A stretch of DNA of 64,000 nucleotides from Acidobacteriaceae bacterium (GTDB lineage: Bacteria > Acidobacteriota > Terriglobia > Terriglobales > Acidobacteriaceae), in NCBI GenBank assembly GCA_003131585.1, contig PKVW01000027.1:16549-80548 (forward strand), in the 5' to 3' direction. Every line of letters starts with the position of its first letter. Position 1 is the first letter of the stretch. A model generated the notes under the pieces. The model was given only the letters and a program-made list of their open reading frames with translations, was not told the DNA's origin and did not search any database. The translations under genes and the position numbers were made by a program. Of this stretch, positions 12,898 to 47,891 are shown one piece after another.

Positions 12898-13149
12898 CTA
12901 GCGCGAAGCTTTCTGTAGTTTGGTCTCGACCAGCCTGGCAGCTTCGCCAACGTTTCGCATTTGCTCCATTTCTTCCGGAGACAACTGAAGGCCAAATTTT
13001 TCTTCCAGCGCAAGCACAAAGTTCAAGTGCTGAGTGGAATCCCAGGCTTCGATCATTTCGGGCGAAGACTCAGCCACGATTCGATCCACAGGAACACCGA
13101 AAAGATCGGACGCTATGCTTCGCACCTGGTCCAGAATGGATGACGTCAA
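12898..13149 (-). CDS. Acyl carrier protein (stand-alone, 83 aa)
   Basis: TTG 13149 overlaps the FkbH stop (TTGA). Phosphopantetheine-site-like EAWDSTQHLNFVLALEEKFG, with the Ser at about residue 38. The 170-aa ORF-track version (to 13410) is an in-frame extension lying inside the FkbH gene. Confidence 0.75.
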   Translation of the reverse strand: MTSSILDQVRSIASDLFGVPVDRIVAESSPEMIEAWDSTQHLNFVLALEEKFGLQLSPEEMEQMRNVGEAARLVETKLQKASR

Positions 13150-15490: not shown

Positions 15491-15534
15491 CTAGGCCGGG
15501 CGCCCCACCGGAAATGAGTTTTGTATCCACCGCA

Positions 15535-16920: not shown

Positions 16921-17062
16921 TGCAAAGCTTAATAACGGTCGCGTTCCCATCGACCTGCTATGTAACCCTATTCTAATTAGTTATCGGAAGGCTGCCAACA
17001 CAGAGGAGTGCGTGCCAGAGCAGTTCCGGCGAGAATCGAGCTGCCGGAAGTTTGTGATCCGA

Positions 17063-18154: not shown

Positions 18155-18191
18155 CCGCGTAATTCTCTACTCCCCATTAGACGTTCTCTAT

Positions 18192-18983: not shown

Positions 18984-19005
18984 CGAACAATCGCTTTGTC
19001 GAAAT

Positions 19006-20052: not shown

Positions 20053-20142
20053 GGCAGAACTCTTTTCCTTCGTCTCGCTAATCGATTTTTCCTAGTCGCT
20101 GGAGTCCGGATGCGACGCACAGTCATAAACGAGCAAACCTCC

Positions 20143-20964: not shown

Positions 20965-21008
20965 ATTTCCTCAATCTTCCTGTTGGTGTGACGATCAACC
21001 TGTGATGA

Positions 21009-21785
21009 TCACGCCATCAACATGCGCGCGCCCGTGGCTAGCAGCACCGCGCAAAGTATGCGGCGCAGCCAGGGAACGGGAACCCGCGTACTCAAGTAGG
21101 AACCGAGCAGCCCGCCTGGAACCGAGCCGATCAAAAGCGCGCCGACGAGGTGAACGTCAACATTGTGCATCCGAAAATGGAGCAGACTGGTGACGCCGGT
21201 GAGAATCAGGGCGTGCACAATGTCGGTGCCCACCATGACCTTCGGTTGGAAGCTGTAGAACAGCAAAAGCATCATCATGACGATGCTGCCTGAGCCGACG
21301 GAGGTGATGCCTACCAGGAAGCCCGCCACCAAGCCGATGACGGACATTCCGAGAAACGACTTCGTGGTTGGAGGCCGCACGGCCGCCCCAGCGGCACGGT
21401 CCTCGATTTTCTTCTGAAAGAACAAGAAAGTCGGAATGCAAATCAGCAGAAATCCAACCGCAACCGTGATGAAGTGGTTGACGCCATTGCCGTAGACATT
21501 CCGCAGGTGGATCAGGAAACTTACGCCCAGATAGGATCCCGGAGCACTGCCGGCGGCCAGCGCCAAGACTACTTTGCGCCGGACCGTGCCCTTGCGCAGG
21601 TGAACGGCGCTGGCGCCGATCTTGGTGAGAAAGTTGAAAAGCGCGTCCGAGCCCACGGCTCGAAGGGGGGGCACGCCCAAACCGAAAATGAGGATCGGGA
21701 GCAGCAGAACGCCGCCCCCGACTCCCGTCATTCCAATGAGGGTCCCGACTCCAAAACCAATCAGGCTCTTGATCAGCAGATCCAT
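21009..21785 (-). CDS. TauE/SafE (DUF81) family anion permease
   Basis: 258-aa polytopic membrane protein. N-terminal GFGVGTLIGMTGVGGGVLLLPIL, with a repeat of the same motif type in the second half (GFLVGITSVGSGSIVMMML). Confidence 0.8.
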   Translation of the reverse strand: MDLLIKSLIGFGVGTLIGMTGVGGGVLLLPILIFGLGVPPLRAVGSDALFNFLTKIGASAVHLRKGTVRRKVVLALAAGSAPGSYLGVSFLIHLRNVYGNGVNHFITVAVGFLLICIPTFLFFQKKIEDRAAGAAVRPPTTKSFLGMSVIGLVAGFLVGITSVGSGSIVMMMLLLFYSFQPKVMVGTDIVHALILTGVTSLLHFRMHNVDVHLVGALLIGSVPGGLLGSYLSTRVPVPWLRRILCAVLLATGARMLMA

Positions 21786-21836
21786 GACCGTACCGGCTTC
21801 AGCCTCTCGTCATTTTCTGGCCTTATCAGAGCGCGT

Positions 21837-23582
21837 TTACAGCGACTCCGCAGCCGTTCCGATGAAGCCTTCCCTCTCCAGGTGCAGGATAATCTCCTGC
21901 GCCGCCTCTTCGGAGGACAAGTCACCGGTATTGATGGTGACTTCGGCATCGGCCGGAACTTCATAAGGATCCGAGATGCCCGTGAATTCTTTGAGAATTC
22001 CCGCGCGCGCCTTGGCGTACAGGCCTTTGCGATCGCGTTGTTCGCAGACTTCCACGGAGGTGGCGATGTGCACCAGAATGAATCCTCCGTAGGGCTCAAT
22101 CGTCTGCCGGACATGTTTGCGGGTCGCATCATAAGGCGCGATGGGAGCGCAAATGGCGATACCGCCATTCTTGGTGATTTCCGACGCAACGTAGCCGATG
22201 CGCCGGATGTTAATGTCGCGGTGCTCCTTGGAAAAGCCGAGTTCGGAAGACAGATTTTTGCGGACCAAATCGCCATCCAGCAAGGTGACGGGACGTCCAC
22301 CGGTTTCGAGAAACTTCGTCAGCAATACGTTGGCAATGGTCGACTTGCCGGAACCGGAAAGTCCGGTGAAGAAGATGGTCACGCCTTGCTTGTGACGGGG
22401 CGGGAAACTGCGGCGCAATTCAGCCACGACTTCGGGATAGGTGAACCAGGCGGGAATCTCGCGGCCTTCGTTCAGGCGTTGGCGAAGTTCAGTGCCGGAG
22501 ATATTCAGCACACGATCCCCCTTCTTGACTTCGTCGTCGGGAACGTATTTGTCCTGATCCTCGAGGTACACCATCATGTTGAAGGGCACCATGGTGACGC
22601 CGATGTCGGCTTCGTGTTTTTTGAACACTTCCTGGGCTTCGTAGGGCCCGTAGAAGGGTTTGCCGTCGGTGTCCTTGCCGGGACCGGCGTGATCGCGGCC
22701 CACGATGAAGTGGGTGCAGCCGTGGTTCTTGCGAATCAGCGCGTGCCAAATGGCCTCGCGCGGTCCACCCATGCGCATGGCGAGCGGCAGTAGGGAAAGT
22801 TTTACCGTTCCCTGAGGGAACTTCGGCAGCAGCAACTGGTAGCAGCGAACCCGGGTAAAGTAGTCGACATCCCCCGGCTTGGTCATGCCCACGCTGGGGT
22901 TGATGAGCAGGTTGGCTTCGACCTGCTTGGCGGCGCGGAACGCGAGTTCGACGTGGGCGCGGTGCATGGGGTTGCGAGTCTGGAAGGCGACCACACGGCG
23001 CCAGCCCGCCCGTGCGAACTCGGCGCGCACCTCGGCCGGAGTCAAACGCAGGTTGCGAAAATCATAGTGGGACGGGATCTGAGTTCCCTCTAGCTTGCCT
23101 CCGACGTACCAGGGATTCGCCTTGTTGATGGCGTAATCGGCGCCCGGATGGGCAGCGCTGGTGCTGGCGAAAACGGCCTTGGCCTCCGCCTTACGGTCTG
23201 GTTGCCAAACTTCTTCCACATGCAACACCGCCAACATCACGCCTTCCGGATCGCGCAGCGCGATTTTGCTCGTGCCGGGGATTAGCTTCCTGGCAAATTC
23301 CTCAGTCACATCCAGCGTGATAGGCATGGGCCAGAGCGTCCCGCTGGCCAGTCGCATGTTGTGGCATACGCCATCGTAGTCGGCGCGTGTCATGAAGCCC
23401 CGCAGTGGAGAAAACCCGCCGGTAAGCAGCAACTCAAGATCACAAAGCTGGCGGCCGGTCAGGTCCCATGAAGGCCACTCTTTCGAATGGGATTTCAATT
23501 CGGCAATTCTCTCGGGTTGAGCGATGAGTTGAACAAGTTCTCCGCCGTGGGGCGGAATGAGATGGCTGGTCGAAGCGGTCAA
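21837..23582 (-). CDS. sat/cysC: Bifunctional sulfate adenylyltransferase / adenylylsulfate kinase (PAPS synthase)
   Basis: ATP-sulfurylase motifs VAFQTRNPMHRAHVEL and FIVGRDHAG. The C-terminal APS-kinase domain has an intact P-loop FFTGLSGSGKSTIA and LLDGDLVR. Confidence 0.92.
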   Translation of the reverse strand: MTASTSHLIPPHGGELVQLIAQPERIAELKSHSKEWPSWDLTGRQLCDLELLLTGGFSPLRGFMTRADYDGVCHNMRLASGTLWPMPITLDVTEEFARKLIPGTSKIALRDPEGVMLAVLHVEEVWQPDRKAEAKAVFASTSAAHPGADYAINKANPWYVGGKLEGTQIPSHYDFRNLRLTPAEVRAEFARAGWRRVVAFQTRNPMHRAHVELAFRAAKQVEANLLINPSVGMTKPGDVDYFTRVRCYQLLLPKFPQGTVKLSLLPLAMRMGGPREAIWHALIRKNHGCTHFIVGRDHAGPGKDTDGKPFYGPYEAQEVFKKHEADIGVTMVPFNMMVYLEDQDKYVPDDEVKKGDRVLNISGTELRQRLNEGREIPAWFTYPEVVAELRRSFPPRHKQGVTIFFTGLSGSGKSTIANVLLTKFLETGGRPVTLLDGDLVRKNLSSELGFSKEHRDINIRRIGYVASEITKNGGIAICAPIAPYDATRKHVRQTIEPYGGFILVHIATSVEVCEQRDRKGLYAKARAGILKEFTGISDPYEVPADAEVTINTGDLSSEEAAQEIILHLEREGFIGTAAESL

Positions 23583-23903
23583 GTCCTAAGCCTCCTGGAT
23601 TCTTACGTTTGTCTTGTCTACTACGTTTATTGTATTTGCTTGGATTGCTTCCCCAAACTTCATCAAGGCCGAGCAAAACCGGTTTGCAGATTCTTTAAGG
23701 GAGAGGGAAACCCCGATACGTTACCCCCCAGAATAACACTTCCAGGCGGCGGTAAGAAAGCTGGACTTGCGCGCTGCAATGACCAAAGAGTGAAAAACGC
23801 AAGGGCCTTCACCAATGGCAGTAGCCGTTTAAGTATTTGAAGCTAAACACGTTACCGGATGGCCGGCGGTGCCGTGCGGCCTTTTTGGGCGGGTTACATT
23901 GGT

Positions 23904-25439
23904 TCACAACTCGGAGGACTCGCCCGTCGGTCTGAAATAACGGGACATTCTGGTTTTGAATTGGATCCCCAGGGGTTCCCGCGTCAGGACAAACCAGAGA
24001 ACGCCAACGCCATAGGTCGCGATGCCGGCGAACAGATTCAGAACAAGCTGCGGATAGCGGTGGGCGTAGAAAGAGCGCTGCATCAAGAGCAGGACAAAAA
24101 TCATGGGCACACAAAAGACGACCGGGTAAAAGTAGGCTTCCATAAGGAATTTGCGGACGGGAATACCAAGCTGGCGGCACATGTGGCGTGGCAAAAAGAA
24201 CAGCGAGGTGCATAGCAATGGGATTGCGGTGCCGATCGCATCGCCAACGATTCCCAAGGGCCGAACCAGCACGATGCTGAGAATCACGTTGGCAATGCCT
24301 TCCATGAGAACGATATACGCCAGGGTTTTATGCCGGCTCATGCCGAATAAGATCCGGTTCGAAGTCGACTGAGCTTGGTAGAACGTAGAAGGAATCAAAA
24401 CAATCAGAAGGACGACGTAACTCGACACATAGCGCGGCCCTACCCAAGCTTCGATCACCGATTTGCCCATCACCACCAGAGCTACTGTCATGGGGAACAT
24501 GACCAGAGCGCAAGCCCGGTTTCCGGAAACGAAGATTTTCCGGAGCTGGTTGTAGTCCCCGATCGCATGAAAGTGACTGGACATGGGGGTGAAAATTTGC
24601 GCCAGGCTGCTCACCGTTTCCCCGGCGTAATCGACCAAGCGTGCTCCAATGGTGAAATGGGTGATTGCCGCCGCCGAAAGGAAGGTTCCAATGATGACTG
24701 CGTCCGTCTTAAACCGCAAACGGGCGGCCACAATAATCATAAAAGTGACCGAGCCGTAGTTGGCGACCTGCCGGAGAGACTCCCGGTCCACGTATTTCCA
24801 TCCGTACGGAATGGCCAGCAACCGTTGCGCGATCACCGCCCGAACCGCGGAGGTGATCAAGGGCAGGGACACGGTGATCAGAGCCACGCTGAGAAGTCCA
24901 AAACCGTGCTGGAGAACGTAGATGATCAGAACGGCCCGCACCAACATCGCGACGACGTTGGTCCAGTTCATCAGGTAGAACCTTTGCAGTCCCTCCAGGA
25001 TGCCTCCCGAGATGCCCAAGGGGAAACCAAGAGCTAAAGCGCATCCCACCATCAGAAACAGAATCCGGGCGTCTTTGAGAAAAGCGGCTGGAATGTGGAA
25101 AAGCCGATCCACATAGAAGCTGCCCAACACAGTCGGCACTACCAAGATCAGTCCGAGACAACTGTAGGTGAAAAGGCTGGTATTTATGAGCCGCGCGAGT
25201 TGGTCTTTGTCGCCGGTCGCCTGGAACTTTGAAACGTAGCGAACCAGGGAGGAGCGGATTCCGAAGTCGAAGATCCCGTAGTAGCCGGTCAAGGAGAAGA
25301 TCAGAACCCACAAGCCAAAGGCTTCGTCCCCGAGATGATGCAAGATAAATGGAGAGAGGAAAAAGCCGACAGCGATGTTCACCGCCAAGCCTCCCCAGCT
25401 CGACGCAACATTCTTCAGAGCCCGGGTCTTTAAACTCAT
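23904..25439 (-). CDS. wzx: Polysaccharide flippase (Wzx / MOP superfamily)
   Basis: 511-aa multi-pass hydrophobic protein. The N-terminus KNVASSWGGLAVNIAVGFFLSPFILHHLGDEAFGLW is typical of Wzx/RfbX-type transporters. It heads the long minus-strand operon. Confidence 0.8.
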   Translation of the reverse strand: MSLKTRALKNVASSWGGLAVNIAVGFFLSPFILHHLGDEAFGLWVLIFSLTGYYGIFDFGIRSSLVRYVSKFQATGDKDQLARLINTSLFTYSCLGLILVVPTVLGSFYVDRLFHIPAAFLKDARILFLMVGCALALGFPLGISGGILEGLQRFYLMNWTNVVAMLVRAVLIIYVLQHGFGLLSVALITVSLPLITSAVRAVIAQRLLAIPYGWKYVDRESLRQVANYGSVTFMIIVAARLRFKTDAVIIGTFLSAAAITHFTIGARLVDYAGETVSSLAQIFTPMSSHFHAIGDYNQLRKIFVSGNRACALVMFPMTVALVVMGKSVIEAWVGPRYVSSYVVLLIVLIPSTFYQAQSTSNRILFGMSRHKTLAYIVLMEGIANVILSIVLVRPLGIVGDAIGTAIPLLCTSLFFLPRHMCRQLGIPVRKFLMEAYFYPVVFCVPMIFVLLLMQRSFYAHRYPQLVLNLFAGIATYGVGVLWFVLTREPLGIQFKTRMSRYFRPTGESSEL

Positions 25440-36753: not shown

Positions 36754-37569
36754 TCAGTCTGCCGCCGGGCCAGACCAATTCTTCAGGTGCCACTCGCGGC
36801 CGCGGACACACAAAGCCGCAACATACCCGGGGCCAGCCGGTATTTCCCGCAGGGACCAGAGCGCGGCTTCAGAATCGTCAGGCCGGGTTGAAAGCAGCGC
36901 ATTCCTATCCTGCGCTGCGATGGAAACATCGAATTGATGCAGAGGAAGCGATAAGCCTTCGCCGGTCGCTTTAATGTAGGCCTCTTTGCGGGTCCAGCAG
37001 CGGAAGAAAGCCTCAAATCGCTTCTCGTCCGGCGCCGCGGCAAGTTGTCTCTGCTCGTGCGCCGAAAAGAATCGGCGGGCGATGGCCTCGAGGTCGAAAT
37101 CGCGGCGAACTCGTTCCACATCGACACCGATCTCTCGCCGGCGTGTAAAGGCAAACAACGCGATTCCGCCGGAATGAGAAACATTGAAGGTAACATCGCT
37201 GTCCGCACGCGCCGTCTCCAGAGAAGGCTTTTCCTTCTTCGAGTAGCAGAAGCTCAAGCTGGCCGGATCCGTTGCCAGGTAGCTTGCCAGGATTGTCCTC
37301 AACAGGGCTCGCGATGCCACAAAGCGCTGCCGATCGCCCGGAAAATGAAAGCGGGAAGCACGCGTCGATTCGTCGGAGGAAAGCACTTTTTGCCAACGGG
37401 ATTCGTCAGGTCGCATCGCTTCCAGATCGACTCGCCAAAGGTGCACTTCGTCCGCGGGCAACTCGATGGACGCCTCGATGTGGAAGTCCGAGTCGGTGAT
37501 GTTCATGCTATGGCTCATGCGTCTCGCTCGCCCGGCCTTGCAGCAGCCCCCGATTGCCACTTCGTCCAT
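36754..37569 (-). CDS. 4'-phosphopantetheinyl transferase, Sfp type
   Basis: FNVSHSGGIALFAF, EIGVDVERV, FFRCWTRKEAYIKATGEGLS. An alternative start at ATG 37518 (MSHSMNI) is possible. Confidence 0.85.
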   Translation of the reverse strand: MDEVAIGGCCKAGRARRMSHSMNITDSDFHIEASIELPADEVHLWRVDLEAMRPDESRWQKVLSSDESTRASRFHFPGDRQRFVASRALLRTILASYLATDPASLSFCYSKKEKPSLETARADSDVTFNVSHSGGIALFAFTRRREIGVDVERVRRDFDLEAIARRFFSAHEQRQLAAAPDEKRFEAFFRCWTRKEAYIKATGEGLSLPLHQFDVSIAAQDRNALLSTRPDDSEAALWSLREIPAGPGYVAALCVRGREWHLKNWSGPAAD

Positions 37570-37774
37570 AATATCGGGCGCGCGAAATCAGCTAAAGCGG
37601 GATCCGCAATCCAGGTCACCACGCTGTGCATGCATCCTCCTTTCCGGCGGTCGCAGCCCCGACGCTCGGCACAGACGTAACCTGTTCAGATTACCCTTTG
37701 GGCAGCCCCTTGCCCGAAAACGTGCTCTAATTAGAAGAGCTACCTGGGCGGTATGGCCGATCGGGAGATTTCCC

Positions 37775-38212
37775 ATGATGAAGTATAGGGTCGTCTGTTT
37801 GTTCATAACCGTCGCAGCCTTGGTCGCCTTGGGGACAGCCCAGAACACGCAAACTCGCTCATCTTCCGCAAAGTCGGGTCCGGATCCGCTTCAGACCGCC
37901 ACCAAGCCACTGACTCCGAAATCCGCAATTACGCCCCACCGCAAGTCCTCGGTCGCGTTGCCGGCGACCAACGGTCGAAACACGACCGCGGAACTTACTC
38001 GCATGGAGCGGCAGAACGTCAAAGCCGGAGATTCGAAGAGCGTCAGTGTCTCATCGGCGCAACGCGTTTCTCCAGTAAAGTCCGCTGACACCTCTGCCGG
38101 GAATGGCTCGGGAATTGACTTTAAGTATAAAAAGCCGGCGGGCGGTCTGCGGGCTTCGACGCCAGACGCTCAGTCTGCGAACTCGGGCAGGCCGGTTACG
38201 AAGAAAAATTAG
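37775..38212 (+). CDS. Small secreted Ser/Thr/Lys-rich low-complexity protein, unknown function
   Basis: ATG 37775 is preceded by GGGAGA. Signal peptide [23 protein letters not shown]. The ORF-track start at 37466 overlaps the PPTase gene. The 3' end overlaps the convergent GT2 gene by 4 nt. Confidence 0.5.
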
Positions 38213-39009
38213 GCGATGGTGTTCGACGCCTTGTCCGCGGGCGGTAGTTTGCCCGATGTCGTGCCCGCCGCCGGCGCGGTTGTCTCGACCGGCGACGACG
38301 CTTTCTGGCGTGCAACCGCGGGTTCGGTGATGCAATACTTCACCAGGCACCAGAGTGCGCGCACTCCATCCTTCCATTGGATTTTCTTGCCTTCCTCATA
38401 AGTTCGGCCCCAGTAGCTGATGCCAACTTCGTAGATGCGCAACTTCCGCTTGGCGATCTTCACCGTTATTTCGGGCTCGAATCCGAAACGCTTTTCCTTC
38501 AGAGGAATCGATTGAATGACTTCGCGCCGGAAGGCTTTGTAACAAGTCTCCATGTCGCTGAGGTTGATGTTGGTAAGGGCGTTGGAAAGCAGAGTAAGAA
38601 TCCAGTTGCCCACGGAATGCCAGAAGTAAAGCACGCGATGCGGGCGGCTGGAAAGAAAGCGCGAGCCGTATACGACGTCGGCGCGCCCTTCGATCAGAGG
38701 CTCCAGCAGCACCGTGTACTCGGCCGGATCGTACTCGAGATCGGCGTCCTGGATGATGACGAAGTCCCCCGTAGCTTCCCCGATGCCGCGGTGCAGGGCC
38801 GCGCCTTTCCCCATGTTCTTGGGCTGAAACAGGATTCGAATCTGGGGACGCTCTGCCTGCAATTGCGCAAGGATCTCGTGGGAGCCGTCGCTGGATCCGT
38901 CGTCGACGCAAATCAATTCAATCTCCAACGGAACCGCAAGCACTCTTTCCACCACTTGCCGCAGCGTGGCGCGCTCGTTGTATACCGGCATGACGACGGA
39001 AAGTCTCAT
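38209..39009 (-). CDS. Family 2 glycosyltransferase (DPM1/polyprenyl-phosphate glycosyltransferase-like)
   Basis: [32 protein letters not shown] (DxD). 266 aa. Confidence 0.85.
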
Positions 39010-39132
39010 TTGAACCTCAGTGTAGTGGAAAAGTGTAGTGCAAATCCAAGCGCGAAGTCCTGCTTTCGTGAGTCAGGCGTAACTATCCGGTGGCGTCCTC
39101 CGGCGTCCTTCTCGCCGCATTGCGGCCGGTTC

Positions 39133-39173
39133 GGAAGAAGAGGGAAAGGAAGAAGAGGGAAAGAAAGAAGAGG
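39133..39173. repeat. 41-nt pure polypurine/polypyrimidine tract built from a 15-nt unit (ggaagaagagggaaa x2 plus a partial copy)
   Basis: Read directly: ggaagaagagggaaa ggaagaagagggaaa gaaagaagagg on the + strand, in the wecB-GT2 spacer. Coordinates were cross-checked against the frame of the shadow ORF at 38377 (GRRGKGRRGKERRG). Confidence 0.9.
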
Positions 39174-39181
39174 CATGAGCA

Positions 39182-40351
39182 TTAAGCAAGACCATTACGC
39201 TGGAGATGTTCGCGGAGAATCGCCACAATGCGTGGCGCCGCTTTGCCATCCCAGAGTGGAGGACGCTGGGGAGGACGCTGAGAGGATCGCGCGGGTTCCC
39301 CGAGGATGGATCGAGCGGCCGCGAGAACGCGATCCGGATCCACTCCGACTACTTGATTCGAGCCGTGATCAACCGTCGCAGGCCGTTCTGTGTTCTCACG
39401 CAGCGTAAGGCAGGGCACGCCGAGGACAGTAGTTTCCTCCTGTACTCCGCCGGAGTCTGTGAGGACGATGCGTGCCCCGTCGTTGAGCGAAAGAAAATCG
39501 AGATACCCGAGCGGATCGAGAGGCACGACTCCAACGCGGTTTGCACCTTCTGCGTGGGCCAGATATCGCACCAAACCAAAACTCTCGATATTTTTTCGAG
39601 TTCGAGGATGAATGGGGAAGAAGACTGGAAGCTCGACAGCCAGAGCGCTCACTGCGCTGAGAATACCTTGCAGCGTCTTGGGATCGTCCACATTGGATGG
39701 CCGGTGCAGAGTGAGGACTCCGTAGGGTCGGCAGCCAGACCCATTCAGACGCACTCCCAGCCGGTCGAGAATCGGCGATTTCGCGGCCAGCTCGCGGTGC
39801 CGGAGCAGGCAGTCGATCATGACGTTGCCGACCAGGAAGATTTTCTCATCCGGCACGCCTTCGTGCTTTAGATTCTCGACCCCACTTTGCTCGGTCACAA
39901 ACAGCAGGCTGGAGACCGCGTCCGTGAGTTTCCGGTTGATCTCCTCCGGCATCGTCATGTCGAAGCTGCGCAATCCGGCTTCGATGTGGGCGACGGAGAT
40001 TCCCAGTTTGACGGCAGTAAGCGCGGTGGCGAGCGTAGAATTCACGTCGCCCACAAGCAGAACCATTTGTGGCTTGTAGTCGAGCAGGACCGGTTCGATG
40101 CGCTTCATGATTTCAGCGGTCTGCCTCGCGTGACTGCCGGAACCGGCCTGAAGGTTCACGTCCGGTTTGGGCAGACCCAGATCCGCGAAAAACTTTCCGG
40201 ACAGGAGTTCGTCGTAGTGCTGCCCGGAGTGCACCAGGCAGTGTTCGACAGCGGGGAGTTTCTTCAGTTCATCTTTGTTCAGTTCATCGATGATGGGCGC
40301 GATTTTCATGAAGTTGGGGCGCGCCCCAACCACGCTCAGAAGCCTGATCAT
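39182..40351 (-). CDS. wecB: UDP-N-acetylglucosamine 2-epimerase (non-hydrolysing)
   Basis: ATG 40351 with AGGAG 7 nt upstream. MIRLLSVVGARPNFMKIAPI, HSGQHYD, DSGGVQEE, family-typical length (389 aa). The ORF track extends it to 40399. Confidence 0.88.
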   Translation of the reverse strand: MIRLLSVVGARPNFMKIAPIIDELNKDELKKLPAVEHCLVHSGQHYDELLSGKFFADLGLPKPDVNLQAGSGSHARQTAEIMKRIEPVLLDYKPQMVLLVGDVNSTLATALTAVKLGISVAHIEAGLRSFDMTMPEEINRKLTDAVSSLLFVTEQSGVENLKHEGVPDEKIFLVGNVMIDCLLRHRELAAKSPILDRLGVRLNGSGCRPYGVLTLHRPSNVDDPKTLQGILSAVSALAVELPVFFPIHPRTRKNIESFGLVRYLAHAEGANRVGVVPLDPLGYLDFLSLNDGARIVLTDSGGVQEETTVLGVPCLTLRENTERPATVDHGSNQVVGVDPDRVLAAARSILGEPARSSQRPPQRPPLWDGKAAPRIVAILREHLQRNGLA

Positions 40352-41041
40352 GGGGAGACTCCTGCCGCGATCACCCAGGCGTTGGAGGATATTCTCCAAA
40401 ACACAGGACCGCTGCGAGTTCCGAGAATGGGATCTTGAGGGCGTGACGAGGAAGGTTTCATCGCTCAGCCAACAGTGTAAAGCACCTTCAGGTGTTCAGT
40501 CCCGAGGACCCTGAGACTCTAGAACTTGAGGAAATTGGCTGCCCAGATGCACTCATCTGGAATACTCCTGTTTCGATCAGGTAGATCATGTAAATTGTTC
40601 AGGGCTCTTGCATAGGCCCGGCAATTTCCACCTAGGGCGTTCACCTGAGCCCCAGCCTTCCGGGTCCGCCTACCGCTCCGGCCGGAGAGAAATTCTTCCC
40701 CTTTTGGGGTTGGGTTCTCGCAAGTGATCGACCGGAGGTGCGGGGGTTCAATTCCTTCTTTTGTCCCGGTCTCCGGATCAAGTCACGCTGACTTTACGCA
40801 CCTTTCGCTTGCCCAGGGTCATTCCAGATGCACATGCCACAGTCTGCCTGTACTGAGGTTCGGGGGGCGGATATGCATTCTGGAAGGCCGCCGCAATCCT
40901 CGCAAGTGCCTGTGGAAATGGCTGTTCTTTAGTCACAGCCAGACTCGTCTCAAAATGGCATTGTGGATGCTATGTAATGTGGAAATATCCCAACTGTACA
41001 CAGGTTTTATGGCGGGGGCGAATCCAAACCAGGGGGTAGTG

Positions 41042-41320
41042 ATGATGGAGCAGTCCGTTCGGCTAGGACCGCGCGAGCAGCAAATCGTCGAATTGCTTTT
41101 GCAAGGCTGTGACAATGCCGAGATTGCCAGCCAGCTAAAGATGGCGCGTAGAACCGTAAAGGCTCATTTCAACCGGCTGTTCCTCCGTTTCGGAATCACC
41201 GGCGGAATCAAGCGAGTGAAACTCGCGACCCTGTTATATCGGAGGCAATTATGTTTGCAAACGAACGTTATGGACCCCGTACTCCCAGTCAGCGTGAAAA
41301 CCGCGTCATCGAGCTTGTAG
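41042..41320 (+). CDS. Stand-alone LuxR/GerE-type HTH protein (pair A, first gene)
   Basis: ATG 41042 follows AGGGGG (41031-41036). HTH core REQQIVELLLQGCDNAEIASQLKMARRTVKAHFNRLF. The N-terminus MME... matches the paralog at 46770 (MMD...). No receiver or ligand domain. The 3' end overlaps the next gene by 70 nt. Confidence 0.75.
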   Translation: MMEQSVRLGPREQQIVELLLQGCDNAEIASQLKMARRTVKAHFNRLFLRFGITGGIKRVKLATLLYRRQLCLQTNVMDPVLPVSVKTASSSL

Positions 41321-41484
41321 CCCAGGGCTTGAAAAACCGCGATGTAGCCCATGCCATCGGCACGACGGAACATGTGGTGAAGAATTATCTTCGCGTGATT
41401 TACGATAAGCTCGGACTCTGGAACCGGGTGGAACTTGCCCTGTGGTATGAATCGCGCAGGCACGAGCCAGAACTCCCGGCGTGA
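41251..41484 (+). CDS. Stand-alone LuxR/GerE-type HTH protein (pair A, second gene)
   Basis: ATG 41251 follows GGAGG (41241-41245). RENRVIELVAQGLKNRDVAHAIGTTEHVVKNYLRVIYDKLGLWNRVELALW. Paralog of 46991-47251. Confidence 0.8.
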   Translation: MFANERYGPRTPSQRENRVIELVAQGLKNRDVAHAIGTTEHVVKNYLRVIYDKLGLWNRVELALWYESRRHEPELPA

Positions 41485-41564
41485 ATCGCGCGGGGGGCAG
41501 GCCTTCGCGTCGAGTTGGGCGGGGAGGGCTTTGAGGGCTGCAGCCCGATTTCCTGCGCCACCCT

Positions 41565-42764
41565 TCACTCACAACCGAACGCGCGCAAGTTACGGAGCCG
41601 CTCCGCGGCAGCCGTCCCGCCCTTTCGGGCGGCCGCATCGAGCAGCAAGCGCGCCTGGTCGCAACTCTTAGGTACGCCCTCGCCCCGCAGGTACAAATCA
41701 GACAGAGTCATCATTGCCGTGAGGTTGCCCTTTCCCACGGCCTTCCACAACCAATGGGCAGCTTCTTCACTGTCGCGAGTCACGCCCGGGTTGCCGTTCA
41801 AGCGCTTCTCTGCCATGGCCAACTCTTCCGCGCCCGTTTGCGCAGTCGCGAGGGCGGGCGAATTTGCAGGCACGGGGCTGATCGGAAGCGCAGGTCGTGC
41901 GCCGGCACCTTGACCTTTTCGGGGATTCGCATCTAGTTGCCTTTTTCCATGAATCGGAGAAGCAGGCGGATTGCCTTCCGGCAAGGCAGCCGTCATCGTG
42001 CTCGGCTGCTCCGCGGAGGTTACTGGCTTAGGTCGCGTCGGCGGAATGGCGCTTGAGGTTGCGGACCGCGGCGGCGCGGTGCTCGAACGAGTCTCCCTTC
42101 CCCGCCACGCCAGGTAACCCAGTACCGCGAGAAAGATCGCCACCACGATACCGACGTAGGGCCGGTAACGATGGGGAACAGGTTCGGATTCCACACCGAG
42201 ACTCGGAAGATCTTTTTCCGGCAGCGGCCAGGTCGGATCCAGGGCGTCATGACTTCCGCTGGCGGCCGTGGGATTAACCGCGGGCTCAATCGCGTATTCG
42301 CCAAAGTCAAAACTGCGAGAAGGTGCGGGTTCACTCCAACTTGTTCCAGCAATCGGCACCGCTTCCGCGACTTGCGGTACGTGTACTGCCGGCGAGATTT
42401 GCAACTGGGCGCCGCACATCCCGCAAAATCTTTGCGCTGCTGAATTCTGGTGCGCGCACACACTGCAAGTGAGGGCAGGCTCCGCTGCGGCTGGCGACGA
42501 ATCCGGCGGTTCCGCCGCCTCAATTTCTATTTCCCGACTCTCGTCGTGAACGACTTGAACAGAGGCAGGCGGCAGAGGAGAAATATTTTCCAGTTCTCGA
42601 AGCAGTTCCGCAATAGCTTGTCCACGCTTCTCGGGCGGATTAGTAAAATACACCTCCGCCCATCGCCCCATGTGAGCCGCTAGTAGCGGATTCAGAAGTG
42701 GATTCAACTCGGGATCCGGCAATATATTTGCGTCGAACTCGTCCGTGGGGTGCGGCACTGGCAT
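41565..42764 (-). CDS. Zinc-ribbon / single-TM / Sel1-repeat protein
   Basis: Double zinc ribbon CSVCAHQNSAAQRFCGMCGAQL, TM segment YVGIVVAIFLAVLGYLAW, and a C-terminal Sel1-like repeat AAHWLWKAVGKGNLTAMMTLSDLYLRGEGVPKSCDQARLLLDAAARKG. Confidence 0.6.
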   Translation of the reverse strand: MPVPHPTDEFDANILPDPELNPLLNPLLAAHMGRWAEVYFTNPPEKRGQAIAELLRELENISPLPPASVQVVHDESREIEIEAAEPPDSSPAAAEPALTCSVCAHQNSAAQRFCGMCGAQLQISPAVHVPQVAEAVPIAGTSWSEPAPSRSFDFGEYAIEPAVNPTAASGSHDALDPTWPLPEKDLPSLGVESEPVPHRYRPYVGIVVAIFLAVLGYLAWRGRETRSSTAPPRSATSSAIPPTRPKPVTSAEQPSTMTAALPEGNPPASPIHGKRQLDANPRKGQGAGARPALPISPVPANSPALATAQTGAEELAMAEKRLNGNPGVTRDSEEAAHWLWKAVGKGNLTAMMTLSDLYLRGEGVPKSCDQARLLLDAAARKGGTAAAERLRNLRAFGCE

Positions 42765-42856
42765 GCTCCGGAGAAGCGGCGATACTTATGATTGCACTAC
42801 CGGGAAAGAAGGTTGTCAAATCGGGGCGGGACTTGACTATGCTCGGGACCGCGAAG

Positions 42857-44623
42857 TCAGTCACAGGCCTTGCGGTTGGCGGGTTCGAACTGGTCTAACT
42901 GCGCGTCGCGCTGGCTGGTGAGCTTGCCTTTCGGTGTCTTGCCATAAAGATCAGAACCTGGGCAGTAGTACAGAGCGGTGTGCAGGTCGACCCAGACCTG
43001 GGTATCGGGATTGCCTTTGTATTCCGGAGTCTCCGGAGCTTCGGCCAGCCCGAGACCGATGAGTAGTTTGTCGAACACGGAGAGATCTGCGTCCGGTGCG
43101 GGCTGTTTACCCCGATTCAGGCTCCCGGAAACTGCCGTTCCACGACCTGTGGCGCCCACCGAGTGGTTGGACCAGATCCCCCAGCGAATCACCACCACTA
43201 CCAGAATGACCGCCACCGCGAGATAGAAATCACCGCGACGGGAATGCCAGAAGCGGGCCAATGCGCCGGGCGTCCGCGTCCCGGACAGCGATTCCAGAAA
43301 ATCCCGGGCCTGGGCTGCGGAACTCCAGGCAATATCCTCCCGCTGCGGCCTTACGAGCGCGGTTAAGGGAACTTCGACATTGTCTTCGCCGGGCTTCGAT
43401 GCGGACGACAGGGACGCCGCCATCGCATCCTCGTTCGCGGTCGCGGTGAAGGATCGCGCGGACAGAGGGTCGTTGCCTTCCAGCGCCGGCAGAGAGAACG
43501 GTTCCGACAGGTCATCGCCGGCATGGTCGTCCTCAAGGTGCGCCTCGTTCTTATGCTTGTGCGCCGCAACCGGGCGCGTCGTCTGCTTGGAAGGCGAGGC
43601 TCCGTTGGAAGGTGCGGCCGCCAAAGTCTCCTGGCCCGTCTGCTGCAGGTGCCACGCCGATGCCAGCTTGCTCTGTAGGCCGGATGCTTCGCCGGCTTCA
43701 CTGGCACGCTGAGCGCCGCACTTTCCGCAAAACTGCTCCTCCGCCACCAGCTTGCTTCCGCACTTCCAGCACGGGGACTTCGCGGTAGTGGCCGTGCTCG
43801 CGCCCATATTCGTGGCGGCGGTCGCGGCGGATTGATCCTCTGCCCAAGCTGCCAGATTCGGTTGGAGCCTTTCGATTGCCGCCAGCATCGTGGATCGTTC
43901 CGCGGCCATGGACTTCTTTAAAGTCAACTCGGCATCTCGGCCAATCGCTTCAGTCACCAGACCGGCCATCAATTGGCAAGTGTGGATATCCTGGTCGGCG
44001 AAGCCGTGAATCCTGTCGAAATAGAGTTCCAGCGCTCCTACAATGTCGTCGTCGTGATAGATCGGTACCGCGACCAGCGATTGGATTCCCCGCTGGCGGC
44101 ACACTTCTGGGTCGAAAAGAAATTCGGAATCCACGTCCTCGCTGCGAATCACCTGCCCGGTGCGCACGCTGGCAGCGCAAATTGCCTTATCCAGAGGGAC
44201 TTCGCTTCCCAAAGGCAAAGAGGGAGCGCCTGCTCCGGCACGATAACGCACCATCTTTCCCTCTAAAATTCCAATGGCCGCGCCGCTCGCGCTCGTGATT
44301 CGTGCAACTCTCTCGGCGACCACTGCCATCGCCTTATCCAATTCGAGATGGCGCATCTGAATCTGGTGCTGCGCTTCGACGATCTCCGCCAGCGTGAGCG
44401 TGTAGTCGCTGTCCGAGCGTGAAGTCTCGTCCGATTCCGGTTTATTTCTTTCTCGCAGAGTTCGATTAGAGTGCTCTTGCTCGCGGAGTTGCTCGCTCTG
44501 GGACTCCAGGCGTTCTTCCAGTTCCCGCATTGTGCGGTTGTGCTCCTGGAGCACATGAGCCGCTTCCAGCAGCTTTTCAAAAGTCTGCTCGTCGAGAACC
44601 GGTTTGTTCTTTTGGTCGGTCAC
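42857..44623 (-). CDS. Coiled-coil / GAF domain / zinc-ribbon / single-TM protein
   Basis: Charged N-terminal coiled-coil region. GAF-like core (AICAASVRTGQVIRSEDV...SLVAVPIYHDDDIVGALELYFDR), ribbon CWKCGSKLVAEEQFCGKCGAQ, TM FYLAVAVILVVVVIRWGIW, and a Cys-containing C-terminal extracytoplasmic tail. Confidence 0.7.
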   Translation of the reverse strand: MTDQKNKPVLDEQTFEKLLEAAHVLQEHNRTMRELEERLESQSEQLREQEHSNRTLRERNKPESDETSRSDSDYTLTLAEIVEAQHQIQMRHLELDKAMAVVAERVARITSASGAAIGILEGKMVRYRAGAGAPSLPLGSEVPLDKAICAASVRTGQVIRSEDVDSEFLFDPEVCRQRGIQSLVAVPIYHDDDIVGALELYFDRIHGFADQDIHTCQLMAGLVTEAIGRDAELTLKKSMAAERSTMLAAIERLQPNLAAWAEDQSAATAATNMGASTATTAKSPCWKCGSKLVAEEQFCGKCGAQRASEAGEASGLQSKLASAWHLQQTGQETLAAAPSNGASPSKQTTRPVAAHKHKNEAHLEDDHAGDDLSEPFSLPALEGNDPLSARSFTATANEDAMAASLSSASKPGEDNVEVPLTALVRPQREDIAWSSAAQARDFLESLSGTRTPGALARFWHSRRGDFYLAVAVILVVVVIRWGIWSNHSVGATGRGTAVSGSLNRGKQPAPDADLSVFDKLLIGLGLAEAPETPEYKGNPDTQVWVDLHTALYYCPGSDLYGKTPKGKLTSQRDAQLDQFEPANRKACD

Positions 44624-44974
44624 GATCTTTCCTGCCCGCCCTTGTGTCCGGCCGGTGTGGGCCGGGATAGCTCCCGGAGACCGAACCCCATTTTAGTGCA
44701 ATTCCTCCACCAAACAACTGACGTTATGAAGTCGACCCTCGCTGCGACCGATGGACAGGAGGTCGAGCAGTGCTGGAACGGGTAGCAGATGATAAAGGCA
44801 CAACCGCATGGAATTCAAGCGGTTACAGGGGACCGAACGCGCGGAGATCTCGCCAGCGCTCTGAATTTGCGGGAGCCGGGCGAAGGTTACTCTCGTAAGC
44901 TGCAAGTGTATGCACACTTGCTCCGGCAAACTCCCTCTGTTCTCCCAGCGGGCCCATATCGATTCGGTGCGATT

Positions 44975-45208
44975 TCATGGAGTGTACCTTTCGCGGGCGA
45001 GATAAAAATGCACGGCCGGCGTGATGATCAGCGACAGCACCATCGAGATTGAGACTCCGCCGATCACTGCGATAGCCAGCGGTTGGAGCATCTGCGATAC
45101 AGCGCCGAGGGCAAAAGCGAGCGGCAGCATGCCCGCGACGGTCGCCAGTGCCGTCATCACGATAGGCCGCAGACGCCGGTCCTCGTTTCGAGCCAAACGG
45201 GAGAACAA
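44975..45208 (-). pseudogene. C-terminal remnant of an RND (AcrB/CzcA-type) efflux transporter
   Basis: The 77-aa ORF RLRPIVMTALATVAGMLPLAFALGAVSQMLQPLAIAVIGGVSISMVLSLIITPAVHFYL matches the last TM helices of RND pumps, which are about 1000 aa. No upstream RND coding sequence is present. Confidence 0.6.
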
Positions 45209-45218
45209 TCCGGCGCGG

Positions 45219-46019
45219 TCAATCGGATTTGTCGGACTTGGGGGGCAGCAGGAATTGAATGCCGAAATAGCCGACGAAATAGGACTGATTGCTGCGCGTG
45301 GGTTCGAGACTGCGTCCGGCCATGAAGAGAAGGATCACCGGTCGATGGATTTTGTAGCGAGCGCCAAAGTCTATAGTGGGCTGGTTCTCGGAAGGATGGA
45401 AGGTGCCTTGGGAATAGAGTTCCATGTCCATTTCGAGTTTTGGAGTGAAATCGTGGCCAACGACGAGGCCGGTGAGCCAGCCGTTCGGTCCTTTGCGGGC
45501 AAACTGATAACCGACTTCGTAGTTCACATCGACGAGGCCAAATTTCTTGGAGAATTGGAAGGGCAGAAGGAAGGCATCGCTGGCGGGGGTGATCCCACGG
45601 CGGACGGCATCGTTGGGGTTGTTGAGGAAGACTTGGGGAAAAACCGAGATGGAGAGGCCAGACTCACCGGCGTCGTAGAAACGCCACTTGACGCCGAGAT
45701 TGGATTGACCCAGGCCAAATTTAGCCGCGGAAGAGGGATTTTGCACGCGTAACCAGGCATTTTCGTAAGTGAGCTGGATGCGATCACCGACGCCGAAATT
45801 GATGTCCACGTCGGGGGTGTGGGAAACGGACTGATTGCGGTAGAAAAATGGCATGTAGCCGAGATTGATTTCCCAATTGAGATGGCCGGGAGTGCCCGGA
45901 TCATTGGTGTAGTAGGGCGGGCCGCCTTGGGCAAATGCGGAGGTAGCGGCAAAGATGAGCACGATGATTAGGCTCCGCAACACCGCTACGGGGCCAAGGG
46001 TGGAGAGCAGAAAGGGCAC
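45219..46019 (-). CDS. Putative outer-membrane beta-barrel protein (MetA/phenol-degradation-like 'transporter' family)
   Basis: Signal peptide ...IFAATSAFAQG, alternating amphipathic beta-strand pattern, aromatic-rich C-terminus (YFGIQFLL). The family call is from recollection only. Confidence 0.5.
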   Translation of the reverse strand: MPFLLSTLGPVAVLRSLIIVLIFAATSAFAQGGPPYYTNDPGTPGHLNWEINLGYMPFFYRNQSVSHTPDVDINFGVGDRIQLTYENAWLRVQNPSSAAKFGLGQSNLGVKWRFYDAGESGLSISVFPQVFLNNPNDAVRRGITPASDAFLLPFQFSKKFGLVDVNYEVGYQFARKGPNGWLTGLVVGHDFTPKLEMDMELYSQGTFHPSENQPTIDFGARYKIHRPVILLFMAGRSLEPTRSNQSYFVGYFGIQFLLPPKSDKSD

Positions 46020-46541
46020 AAAGGATCAAGGGGGAACTCCACTCGCCTCAAGCTTCGAGATGGCGTGGAAGTAATTCTTATACCACAGGGAATCGGGATA
46101 AGGAAGGAAGGGACAGCAAAAATTAAAGATATTGGTACAGAACCCAGGGCGGTGCCCAGGAAGACGGTTGCAATAATGGTGAGGTATTAGTGGGAGTGAA
46201 ATGCCCGCGTGAAAGCCGGGCGACTGCGTTGCGAAAAGAGCGAAGATGAAGAGAGAGAAGGCCACGATTGAGCAGGCGGAACTGATTCTGAAACTATAGA
46301 GTCATTGAGACAGTCGGACCGAAAGGCCTGAGTTTTCTTACCACGGGAATGAATCCTCGCAGTTTTCATCACCTCGGGAGCCAATCCATCGGGTTGGGAA
46401 CCTGCTCAAAATTCTGAAGGGAAAAGGCTTGTCTTGACCGATTCGGGCGCTAGGATCGCAAGCCTCGTCTTGCGGCATTTACCTCACGGGGAACCCGGCA
46501 CGGGCGATGTCTAGGTTGCGGCGCAGTATCTGTTCTTCCGT

Positions 46542-46585
46542 CCTCGGCCCAGTTTGGGACGGACCTCGGTCCAATTTGGGACGAA
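46542..46585. repeat. Tandem 22-bp direct repeat (2 copies, 19/22 identical)
   Basis: cctcggcccagtttgggacgga / cctcggtccaatttgggacgaa, read directly. It lies about 185 nt upstream of LuxR pair B. Confidence 0.85.
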
Positions 46586-46769
46586 CTAGCCTAGCACGGA
46601 GTTTCTGAACTTCTTCTGAAAGCCTTGGTCCTTGTCCCCAAGTGCAAGCACACGCTGATCTTAGGACGGCCGGGGCTGGCAGCGAAGGTTTGGCGAAGGA
46701 TGTGCTTAACAAACAATGCGGATCGCAATCGGAAGAGTGAAAAAGGCGCGATACCGGAGGAATTGCCTA

Positions 46770-46994
46770 ATGATGGACCTCGACAGAATGAAAGTTACGC
46801 CCCGGGATCAGCAAGTGCTGGACTTGCTGGTCCAAGGTTGCAGCAACAAGGAAATCGCGGGGCAGTTAAGCATTAGCCCGCGCACCGTAAAGCAGCACTT
46901 GAGAACGCTTTTTCTACGCGCCGGAATTCGGGAGGGGCGCAAGCGCGTGCGCCTGGCTACGGCCGCATTCGAGAAGGCGGAGGTGAAATCATGA
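46770..46994 (+). CDS. Stand-alone LuxR/GerE-type HTH protein (pair B, first gene)
   Basis: ATG 46770 follows GGAGG (46756-46760). PRDQQVLDLLVQGCSNKEIAGQLSISPRTVKQHLRTLF. Paralog of 41042-41320. Its stop overlaps the next start (ATGA). Confidence 0.8.
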   Translation: MMDLDRMKVTPRDQQVLDLLVQGCSNKEIAGQLSISPRTVKQHLRTLFLRAGIREGRKRVRLATAAFEKAEVKS

Positions 46995-47251
46995 TGCCGC
47001 GCGACCGCTTAACCCCAAAGGAAATTCAGGTGGCTACTCTCGTCTGGGAGGGAATGACCAATCGTGAGATTGGCAAGCTCATGAGCACCACGGAGCAGGT
47101 CATCAAGAATCACCTGCGCAGCACCTTCGACAAAGTGGGAGTCTGGAGCCGGCTCGAGTTGGCCATGTACGTCGCCAGTCACGGTGGCAAGAATTGGCTG
47201 GAAGAGCCGGAACGGCCGGTTTTCGCACCGGCTCGTGCCGCCGCGAGTTAA
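46991..47251 (+). CDS. Stand-alone LuxR/GerE-type HTH protein (pair B, second gene)
   Basis: LTPKEIQVATLVWEGMTNREIGKLMSTTEQVIKNHLRSTFDKVGVWSRLELAMY. Paralog of 41251-41484. Confidence 0.8.
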   Translation: MMPRDRLTPKEIQVATLVWEGMTNREIGKLMSTTEQVIKNHLRSTFDKVGVWSRLELAMYVASHGGKNWLEEPERPVFAPARAAAS

Positions 47252-47492
47252 CGGTGAAAGAAATGTCGGGCTTGCCTGCAAGATCTTGCGTAGTGCTCAT
47301 CGCGAGCAGACCGCTGCGGCAAAAGGTTTGCACTCCGATGCTCCGGCCCCGTTCGAAAGGTCGAGTACGGCATTGAAAAGAAAGAACTTGTTTTTCTTAC
47401 AGTCGGTCTGCAAATTGCAGCGGCAGACCCGACCCAACAGAGCGGGCTCACGCAGCCTCGAGCCAGCTCCGCAATCCCTGGGCGGGGCGGGA

Positions 47493-47891
47493 ATGGACTA
47501 CAAAGAGATCTTCTGGATGGCTTGCGACTCTACCGAGCGATTGCGGGCGGAATATGGCCCGTTTCACACTCGTGCGGAGGCGGAAGCCGAAGCCCGCAAG
47601 CTGGGGTTCAGTTACCTGCTGCGTTACGAACACCTGCTCGATGAAAACCAGGAGATTCAGGAGGTCCGGTGCATTTTCCTCGAGTTACCTGGCGCGGTTG
47701 CGGTGGAGGCTTCTTCCATCAGCCTGCACACCCGTTGCGCCACCTGTGGCGAGTCCGCTGCCCACGACAAGGCGTGGCAGGCTGAAGTGTGGGCGGACAT
47801 CCACGAGTTTGAACGCTCCCGCCATCGCGTGCGGCTTTTCGAGCACGCACGCGGCAAGGGCCTGAAGGAAATCGGTGGCTGGCGCGGATAA
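47493..47891 (+). CDS. Hypothetical protein (132 aa)
   Basis: ATG 47493 lies within a longer ORF (47184). No recognisable motif beyond CATCGES. Coding status is inferred from length and position only. Confidence 0.4.
   Translation: MDYKEIFWMACDSTERLRAEYGPFHTRAEAEAEARKLGFSYLLRYEHLLDENQEIQEVRCIFLELPGAVAVEASSISLHTRCATCGESAAHDKAWQAEVWADIHEFERSRHRVRLFEHARGKGLKEIGGWRG

Follow-up and report, generated by a model that had tools for sequence, protein, structure and literature searches.

The 64,000-nucleotide stretch of the Acidobacteriaceae bacterium contig PKVW01000027.1 analyzed here (the window; positions are counted from its first letter) carries two pairs of adjacent small genes, A1/A2 and B1/B2, whose products consist of a GerE/LuxR-type helix-turn-helix (HTH) domain and nothing else. 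As a rule, HTH domains of the LuxR/GerE type are portrayed as forming symmetric homodimers and being joined to a sensory domain; at this locus two different minimal HTH proteins are encoded side by side, and twice over. A previous reading of the window, made from its letters only (the sequence-only reading), had seen in it a duplicated two-gene module for an obligate heterodimeric regulator or, alternatively, for a regulator plus anti-regulator pair. The comparative results given below make it probable, in our judgement, that A and B are bipartite GerE/LuxR-type factors, that is type 1:type 2 heterodimers, which are transcribed from sigma-54-type promoters. The four genes are the following.

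41042-41320, plus strand: A1, type-1 GerE/LuxR HTH-only protein; open reading frame (ORF) of 92 aa with a functional core of ~70 aa
41251-41484, plus strand: A2, type-2 (canonical) GerE/LuxR HTH-only protein, 77 aa
46770-46994, plus strand: B1, type-1 GerE/LuxR HTH-only protein, 74 aa
46991-47251, plus strand: B2, type-2 GerE/LuxR HTH-only protein, 86 aa

Each of the four proteins matches the Pfam family GerE (PF00196; gathering cut-off 23.5 bits) with 42.7-51.8 bits and E values of 6e-14 (B1) to 4e-11, and the Pfam search found GerE alone, with no second domain in any of them. A1 resembles B1 (52% identity over 63 aa, E 1e-22) and A2 resembles B2 (42% over 67 aa, E 1e-17), compared with 28-38% identity when type 1 is paired with type 2; no further A- or B-like protein was found by sequence comparison elsewhere in the window. 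A Shine-Dalgarno sequence of the GGAGG or AGGGGG type is located 5-9 nt upstream of all four genes. B1 and B2 overlap by an ATGA, and A2 starts, together with its Shine-Dalgarno sequence (GGAGG), within the 3′ end of A1, the two genes sharing 70 nt (41251-41320) that A1 reads in another frame than A2. The ORF list, the Pfam search and the pairwise comparisons confirm what the sequence-only reading had reported of the four ORFs, namely their coordinates, their HTH-only nature, the Shine-Dalgarno sequences, the overlaps and the A1-B1 and A2-B2 likeness. All four genes are under strong purifying selection, with ratios of non-synonymous to synonymous substitution (dN/dS), calculated against the window, of 0.04 to 0.13 (B1 0.088, B2 0.131, A1 core 0.039, A2 0.061). 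The A1 tail that overlaps A2 is different: its dN/dS in the A1 frame is ~2.1, compared with 0.04 for the core, and its residues are not conserved. This 70-nt tail is thus unconstrained read-on without a function of its own, and functional A1 is only ~70 aa long. Gene callers often skip A1 in relatives because of this tail, and the A1 ORF is nonetheless intact there.

If the two proteins of a pair act together, they should also be inherited together. B1 has 2321 homologues, the top 120 of which are 86-97% identical; the named ones among these come from Candidatus Sulfotelmatobacter, Acidoferrum or Acidobacteriaceae metagenome-assembled genomes (MAGs). Relatives were scanned using one genome per GTDB species, which yielded >524 confirmed B1 matches, and locus counts are based on the best 80, all from Terriglobia or Terriglobales MAGs and with a B1 that is 74-99% identical. 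B1 is present at 80/80 of these loci and B2 follows it directly at 79/80, the remaining locus being cut by a contig end; an A pair lies inside the 6-kb flank of B at 20/80. We then built hidden Markov models (HMMs) for each of the two types, by which all GerE-like ORFs of all loci were assigned. This gave 107 adjacent type 1-type 2 pairs and no HTH-only orphan, save one pair cut by a contig end. Two apparent type-2 orphans turned out to be the output domains of full-length response regulators of 226 aa and 261 aa. That type-2-like domains form the output of such regulators shows type 2 to be the canonical form and type 1, which has a 3-residue insertion before helix 4, the derived one. At every scorable junction gene 2 starts inside gene 1. 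Overlaps of 4 nt are the commonest at B junctions (45 loci), followed by 22 nt (29) and 14 nt (5); at A junctions, 16 loci have 82 nt, 4 have 67 nt and 2 have 70 nt. Within the 3′ end of gene 1 a GGAGG is conserved. A and B are paralogous copies and the pair was duplicated as a unit, in agreement with the duplicated module of the sequence-only reading, which had also pointed to related genomes as the place to look for the paired architecture.

Searching B1 against 1.84 billion cluster representatives also returned many proteins of 133-170 aa containing two matched stretches. In these fused proteins the type-1 domain is N-terminal and the type-2 domain C-terminal, and Pfam sees two GerE stretches in each. 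One of them, P0395 (150 aa), was traced to 164 contig-collection blocks originating from NCBI, JGI, ENA and Logan, and a search with it returned 784 proteins at E<=1e-10. Among the ~100 clusters listed for this family, identities are 43-97%, most members are 145-150 aa long and coverage is full-length; named members are Sulfotelmatobacter or Acidiferrales. This family is not a sequencing artefact. A few other hits (P0303, P0328), on the other hand, look like frameshift artefacts and were set aside. The fusions are of two kinds at least. In the A-like one, identity to A1 is 66% in the N-domain and identity to A2 is 70% in the C-domain; in the B-like one, the domains are 73% and 61% identical to B1 and B2, respectively. 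A third fused lineage resides in an integrase/primase/SprT element (L091, 6001-6414), and a fourth, carrying an extra N-terminal Fis-type HTH, in a phage with terminase, portal and Mu-F-like genes (L093, 8001-8732). The N-terminal HTH_8 of fused P0327 was considered as a sign of an enhancer-binding protein; this idea was dropped, the context being a phage with terminase and portal genes. If they are located on the same contig, fused P0426 and the split B pair of locus L018 (OY970205.1) coexist as paralogues in one genome. The fused gene has a conserved context of its own (L085/L094, ~600-11700), with genes for a DsbA-like protein, a 1121-aa Ig-like protein, a 226-aa protein, the fused regulator, a GAF-transmembrane (TM)-TonB_C protein and an AMIN-domain protein. 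The spacing between the two domains is nearly the same in the split and the fused forms (26 versus 27 aa for A, 25 versus 24 aa for B), and this equal spacing, together with the unconstrained A1 tail, would fit interconversion of split and fused forms by a frameshift in the linker. When genes fuse repeatedly and always in one order, physical association of their products is the classical conclusion (the ‘Rosetta stone’ argument), and this gives the heterodimer its strongest support.

The B1 search also returned multi-HTH arrays of the same family (P0275, P0341, P0245 and P0241-P0243). Some of these array proteins consist of four tandem GerE HTH domains in ~320 aa; one of 740 aa has 12 matched HTH stretches, and giants of 2854-7703 aa have 10-19. 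Multi-HTH arrays of the GerE family thus exist and appear to be uncharacterized.

P0395 was modeled with AlphaFold2 from an alignment of 29 fused proteins. The P0395 model has a mean predicted local distance difference test (pLDDT) score of 84.4 and a predicted template modeling (pTM) score of 0.78, both for a single chain. It consists of two four-helix domains (residues 14-70 and 88-149) connected by a floppy, low-confidence linker. Each domain superimposes on the NarL C-terminal domain (PDB 1JE8) with a root-mean-square deviation of 0.8 Å over 59 columns and a TM-score of 0.84-0.86. A structure search found no PDB chain spanning both domains, and a sequence search found no tandem-GerE structure. 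The high pTM despite the floppy linker suggests that the two domains have a defined mutual arrangement. NarL alignments showed that both types keep a NarL-like recognition helix with the pattern T-V/I-K-x-H-L-R, which is the most conserved, nearly invariant segment of each type. The DNA-contacting residues K188 and K192 of NarL align with K and R in both types, and where NarL has V189, type 1 carries Q or A and type 2 carries N; judged from this position, it is plausible that the two types prefer different half-sites. Aligned to NarL and GerE, B1 matches as far as residue ~53-59, short of helix 4, and the B2 alignments continue through it. Helix 4 is the usual dimer interface in GerE/LuxR-type HTH proteins, and we infer from where the B1 alignments end that type 1 departs from the family at this interface. 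The Cys residue in the ‘QGC’ motif of type 1 was considered as a redox sensor and dropped: its position is a buried hydrophobic one in NarL (L) and other relatives.

The sequence-only reading had spoken of long upstream leaders. Phylogenetic footprinting of the 640-750 nt in front of A1 and B1 showed a few conserved blocks in otherwise largely unconserved sequence; these regions are regulatory DNA and promoters. Their sharpest block, 52-113 nt from the start codons, is a conserved element of the -24/-12 type with the layout of a sigma-54 promoter. The sigma-54 pattern applied was TGGCAC-N5-TTGCW, with its GG and GC doublets separated by 10 nt, ahead of the gene and in the same orientation. Such elements, conserved across loci, precede four transcription units: those of A and B, that of the gene downstream of B2 (X131, encoding a Cys/His-rich protein) and that of a GAF-domain membrane protein gene between the two pairs.

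40956-40970, plus strand: P_A, predicted promoter of operon A, TGGCATTGTGGATGC (GG-N10-GC); TGGCA-N7-TGCTA with varying spacer in 15/17 A loci; predicted start ~40982
46691-46705, plus strand: P_B, predicted promoter of operon B, TGGCGAAGGATGTGC, consensus TTGGCGAA-N4-gTGCtt; GG-N10-GC in 78/81 loci; predicted start ~46717
47404-47419, plus strand: P_X, predicted promoter upstream of X131, CGGTCTGCAAATTGCA, consensus CGGyCTGCAAATTGCA; nGGY-N7-DTGCW in 63/76 loci at -60 to -130; predicted start ~47430
44697-44712, minus strand: P_GAF, candidate promoter of the GAF protein gene, TGGTGGAGGAATTGCA (GG-N10-GC); conserved in 21/32 loci, with a conserved TAnAAT directly after it; predicted start ~44686

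All four elements have their two doublets 10 nt apart around a varying spacer, are oriented with the gene and are located 50-130 nt before the start codon; for P_B the distance to the B1 ATG is 52-106 nt. A promoter scan found no sigma-70-like promoter upstream of A1 or B1. We consider it likely that the conserved GG-N10-GC elements are sigma-54 (-24/-12) promoters. This prediction would suit the neighborhood, which includes polysaccharide genes, as sigma-54 regulons commonly span exopolysaccharide (EPS) and cell-envelope functions (PMC3162934).

Further conserved blocks, which are candidate activator or autoregulatory sites, are found upstream of these elements.

40902-40940, plus strand: block upstream of operon A, GCAAGTGCCTGTGGAAATGG...GTCACAGCC, with the inverted repeat CTGTG-N19-CACAG; footprint in 12-17 loci
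46571-46665, plus strand: blocks upstream of operon B, CCAATTTGGGAC, TTCTGAA-N4-TTCTGAAAG and CCCAAGTGCAAGC...CTTAG; footprints

CTGTG-N18-20-CACAG is present in 9/15 A loci, at -46 relative to the -24 element, and occurs once in the window. At B, TGAA-N6-8-TGAA is found in 32/78 loci and TAAG-N17-19-CTTA in 17/78, versus 0/81 control regions. P_A and P_B share an AAGTGC at position -52 from the -24 element.

Three other features were noted in the same regions. A direct repeat upstream of P_B (46549-46582) is formed by CCAGTTTGGGAC and CCAATTTGGGAC, 22 nt apart, the second copy being conserved; its TTGGGAC resembles a DosR-type half-site. A second GG-N10-GC element, CGGCAAAAGGTTTGCA (47317-47332), lies 67 nt past the B2 stop codon and is conserved among close relatives only. 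Upstream of operon A, a GGGGGTTCAATTCCTTC stem-loop (40740-40760) resembles a tRNA T-arm and may be the relic of a tRNA or an attachment site; ARAGORN calls no tRNA here, and Rfam and tRNA scans of the window found no non-coding RNA.

Taken as a whole, these observations can be accommodated in the following model. Each factor would be split into two overlapping, translationally coupled genes encoding a derived type-1 HTH and a canonical type-2 HTH. Most likely the two small proteins form a 1:1 heterodimer, which would correspond in split form to the two-HTH proteins that the same bacterial order has as one chain. Each subunit would put one recognition helix on the DNA, and the heterodimer would read a two-part, non-palindromic operator. 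Operon A, operon B, X131 and probably the GAF gene would start at -24/-12 promoters and presumably depend on sigma-54, and the pairs would be second-tier regulators below an unlinked enhancer-binding protein. Of the ‘obligate heterodimeric regulator’ of the sequence-only reading, the obligate pairing is strongly, if indirectly, supported by the 79 loci, the overlapping frames, duplication as a unit and the fusions, and the physical heterodimer is what we infer from them; it is well supported by comparative evidence but unproven. Several points weigh against the model. The P0395 model is that of one chain and had no homodimer for comparison, and fusion leaves the stoichiometry unfixed, as a fused chain could dimerize further. 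The loci of the fused proteins lack the GG-N10-GC element. Taken as single sequences, the -24/-12 matches do not exceed chance (the window has 31 comparable sites), so that it is conservation across loci that carries the sigma-54 call. The TAnAAT after P_GAF could be a sigma-70 -10 box, which makes P_GAF ambiguous between sigma-54 and sigma-70. Finally, a motif search found no GAFTGA-type enhancer-binding protein encoded in the window.

A rival explanation, for which the chance-level score of single sites and the fused loci without the element speak, is that the GG-N10-GC elements are not sigma-54 promoters but asymmetric operators through which the two-HTH regulators control their own genes, with halves one helical turn apart. 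Two GerE-type recognition helices would contact successive major grooves ~10 bp apart, and the element is present at all four transcription units of the module. We nevertheless regard this explanation as unlikely. The positions that do not vary coincide exactly with the sigma-54 consensus, in its two doublets (GG and GC) as well as in its flanks (TGGC and TTGCW); every element points along its gene, at 50-130 nt from the start codon; and the promoter scan gave A and B no sigma-70 promoter instead.

Rather improbable, in our view, is that type 1 and type 2 each form homodimers on separate palindromic sites, adjacency and overlap of the genes only ensuring co-expression in one circuit. The closest solved relatives, GerE and the C-terminal domains of NarL and DosR, do work as homodimers, and type 2 looks fully canonical and resembles what full-length response regulators of the same genomes have as output domain. 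Against this, not a single partnerless HTH-only member of either type was found versus 107 pairs; repeated fusions with fixed order and spacing are unexpected for two independent homodimers; and the fused protein is modeled in a single confident arrangement.

Very improbable is the other proposal of the sequence-only reading, in which one member is a DNA-binding regulator and is titrated into inactive heterodimers by the other, an anti-regulator, much as in TrlR/TraR. That type 1 departs from the family in the loop/helix-4 region would fit such a role. The residues aligning with NarL K188 and K192 are, however, kept and near-invariant in both types, within the recognition helix that is the best conserved part of each, and type 1 is the more conserved partner (dN/dS 0.04-0.09). 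Moreover, translational coupling would produce the inhibitor in a fixed ratio to its target, and a regulator that is permanently and covalently joined to its own inhibitor makes little sense. That the small ORFs are annotation noise or decaying response-regulator fragments, as the skipping of A1 by gene callers and its 70-nt overlap with A2 might suggest, is effectively refuted by strong purifying selection, thousands of homologues of equal length, and conserved start codons and Shine-Dalgarno sequences.

We next compared the preferred bipartite factors with known systems. GerE of Bacillus subtilis (PDB 1FSE) is, like the proteins described here, a four-helix GerE HTH alone of ~74 aa, to which B1 aligns at E 8e-7. 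Unlike GerE, which is encoded by one gene and forms a homodimer, they are two paralogues always encoded together in overlapping frames, and type 1 differs from GerE in its insertion before helix 4. PedR of Synechocystis (Ssl0564; NCBIfam NF052366), another small HTH-only LuxR-type protein, is the top or near-top NCBIfam match for A1 and A2, at 28-37 bits versus an equivalog cut-off of 120, so that neither protein is a PedR; PedR is a single gene and is regulated by thioredoxin. EpsA (TIGR03020), an XrtB/PEP-CTERM-associated EPS regulator with a LuxR-type HTH at polysaccharide loci, is the best NCBIfam match for B2, at 22-33 bits versus a cut-off of 170, and the match covers only model positions 188-240 of 247, that is the C-terminal ~50 residues; the proteins do not belong to EpsA. 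The NarL C-terminal domain is the best structural match of both fused domains and its recognition-helix residues align with theirs, but it serves as response-regulator output and binds 7-2-7 sites as a symmetric dimer. With 74-92 aa, the proteins leave no room for the N-terminal receiver (REC) domain of NarL/FixJ response regulators, and no REC match was found; the source name ‘NarL/FixJ family response regulator’ is therefore a misnomer. Neither do they have the autoinducer-binding domain of LuxR quorum-sensing regulators and LuxR solos, as the HTH domain stands alone.

Among two-subunit systems, VisN and VisR of Sinorhizobium meliloti are encoded by adjacent LuxR-family genes and are thought to act as a heteromer. 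They are ~245 aa long and have ligand-binding-type N-terminal domains, whereas the proteins described here have no sensory domain and their genes overlap. RcsA/RcsB and BldM/WhiI are FixJ/NarL-type HTH heterodimers on composite sites, RcsAB controlling capsule polysaccharide genes. The genes of these partners are unlinked or only loosely linked, the proteins have receiver or other domains, and either partner also works alone, unlike the pairing described here, which appears to be obligate and is sometimes covalent. The co-occurrence of two different LuxR-family subunits that marks heteromeric VisNR- or RcsAB-like regulators was found at 79/80 loci and in the 107 pairs. The functionally nearest counterparts are the heteromeric VisNR, RcsAB and BldM/WhiI and the single-domain GerE and PedR. 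What sets the proteins described here apart from these is an obligate pair of minimal HTH-only paralogues with overlapping genes and single-chain versions, and literature searches found no description of such an HTH-only pair.

Instead of a homodimer tied to a sensory domain, the DNA-binding unit here appears to be an obligate pair of different minimal HTH proteins that is also found as one chain. Split and fused forms together offer a natural fission/fusion series in which the reading of asymmetric operators can be studied. Sulfotelmatobacter-like Terriglobales carry the module almost universally; they are abundant yet poorly understood soil and peat bacteria, for which we know of almost no characterized regulator, and the Terriglobales are a dominant group in these habitats. 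The results also expose systematic mis-annotation, the proteins being called ‘response regulators’ and A1 often not being called at all. More tentatively, the split pairs and their single-chain relatives could possibly constitute an unrecognized class of bipartite GerE-type factors reading asymmetric operators. Each would be wired to a GAF single-pass membrane protein, and the split ones also to sigma-54 promoters and the 132-aa Cys/His-rich protein, as a core envelope-signaling module of Terriglobales whose design was borrowed by their phages and integrative elements.

The genes located between and directly downstream of the two pairs are as follows.

41565-42764, minus strand: Sel1-repeat protein with zinc-ribbon and TM segment, 399 aa; weak Pfam matches to Sel1, DZR and Zn_Ribbon_1; variable neighbor
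42857-44623, minus strand: GAF/zinc-ribbon single-pass membrane protein, 588 aa; Pfam GAF_2 (1.6e-16) and Zn_Ribbon_1
45219-46019, minus strand: outer-membrane beta-barrel-like protein, 266 aa; weak Pfam match to Phenol_MetA_deg; variable neighbor
47493-47891, plus strand: X131, Cys/His-rich protein, 132 aa, downstream of B2

The sequence-only reading had placed the duplicated pairs around a set of membrane sensor-like genes. This is the case in the window, and the intervening genes vary among relatives: the GAF/zinc-ribbon protein gene is found, divergent, upstream of B1 at 48/80 loci, the Sel1 gene upstream of B1 at 26/80 and the outer-membrane-like protein gene at 15/80. The GAF gene, which sits between the A and B pairs, would encode a candidate sensor partner. 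At the separate fused locus a GAF-TM-TonB_C protein is encoded directly after the two-HTH gene; it shares with the GAF protein of the window the GAF domain alone (25% identity, E 3e-5). Downstream of B, X131 is present on the same strand at 74/80 loci and pgl is convergent at 54/80.

On the other side of the A pair the window contains a polysaccharide cluster (13146-25439 and 36754-40399), which includes the following genes.

17063-18154, minus strand: sulfotransferase
21837-23582, minus strand: 3′-phosphoadenosine 5′-phosphosulfate synthesis (ATP sulfurylase/adenosine 5′-phosphosulfate kinase)
23904-25439, minus strand: flippase-like protein
36754-37569, minus strand: phosphopantetheinyl transferase
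38209-39009, minus strand: family 2 glycosyltransferase (GT2)
39182-40399, minus strand: wecB

The location next to an EPS locus, as previously claimed, holds for this window and for close relatives, in which parts of the cluster are kept, but not more widely. Because wecB is upstream at only 3/80 loci, and because a motif search found none of the conserved upstream blocks again at the polysaccharide genes or elsewhere in the window, the EPS link is positional only, without evidence from these blocks that the polysaccharide genes are targets, and the GAF single-pass membrane protein is the more robust association. The cluster also holds genes for an FkbH-like protein and methyltransferases, and its gene content suggests a sulfated, possibly acylated glycan.

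X131 has a dN/dS of 0.07 and 1687 homologues, all named ‘hypothetical’ save a few with JGI names; the name ‘formylmethanofuran dehydrogenase subunit E’ given by these few is unsupported. No Pfam, NCBIfam or PHROG family matched it, and its AlphaFold2 model (pLDDT 56) was too poor for a fold search. A 133-aa gene following the B-like fusion (L089) was considered as a counterpart and rejected, as tblastn and Pfam show no relation. X131 has conserved Cys and His residues, including a CxxC and several H. In its 5′ leader (47440-47469), between P_X and the start codon, conserved near-palindromic elements are found, GAGCGGGCTC ... GAGCC(A/G)GCTC.

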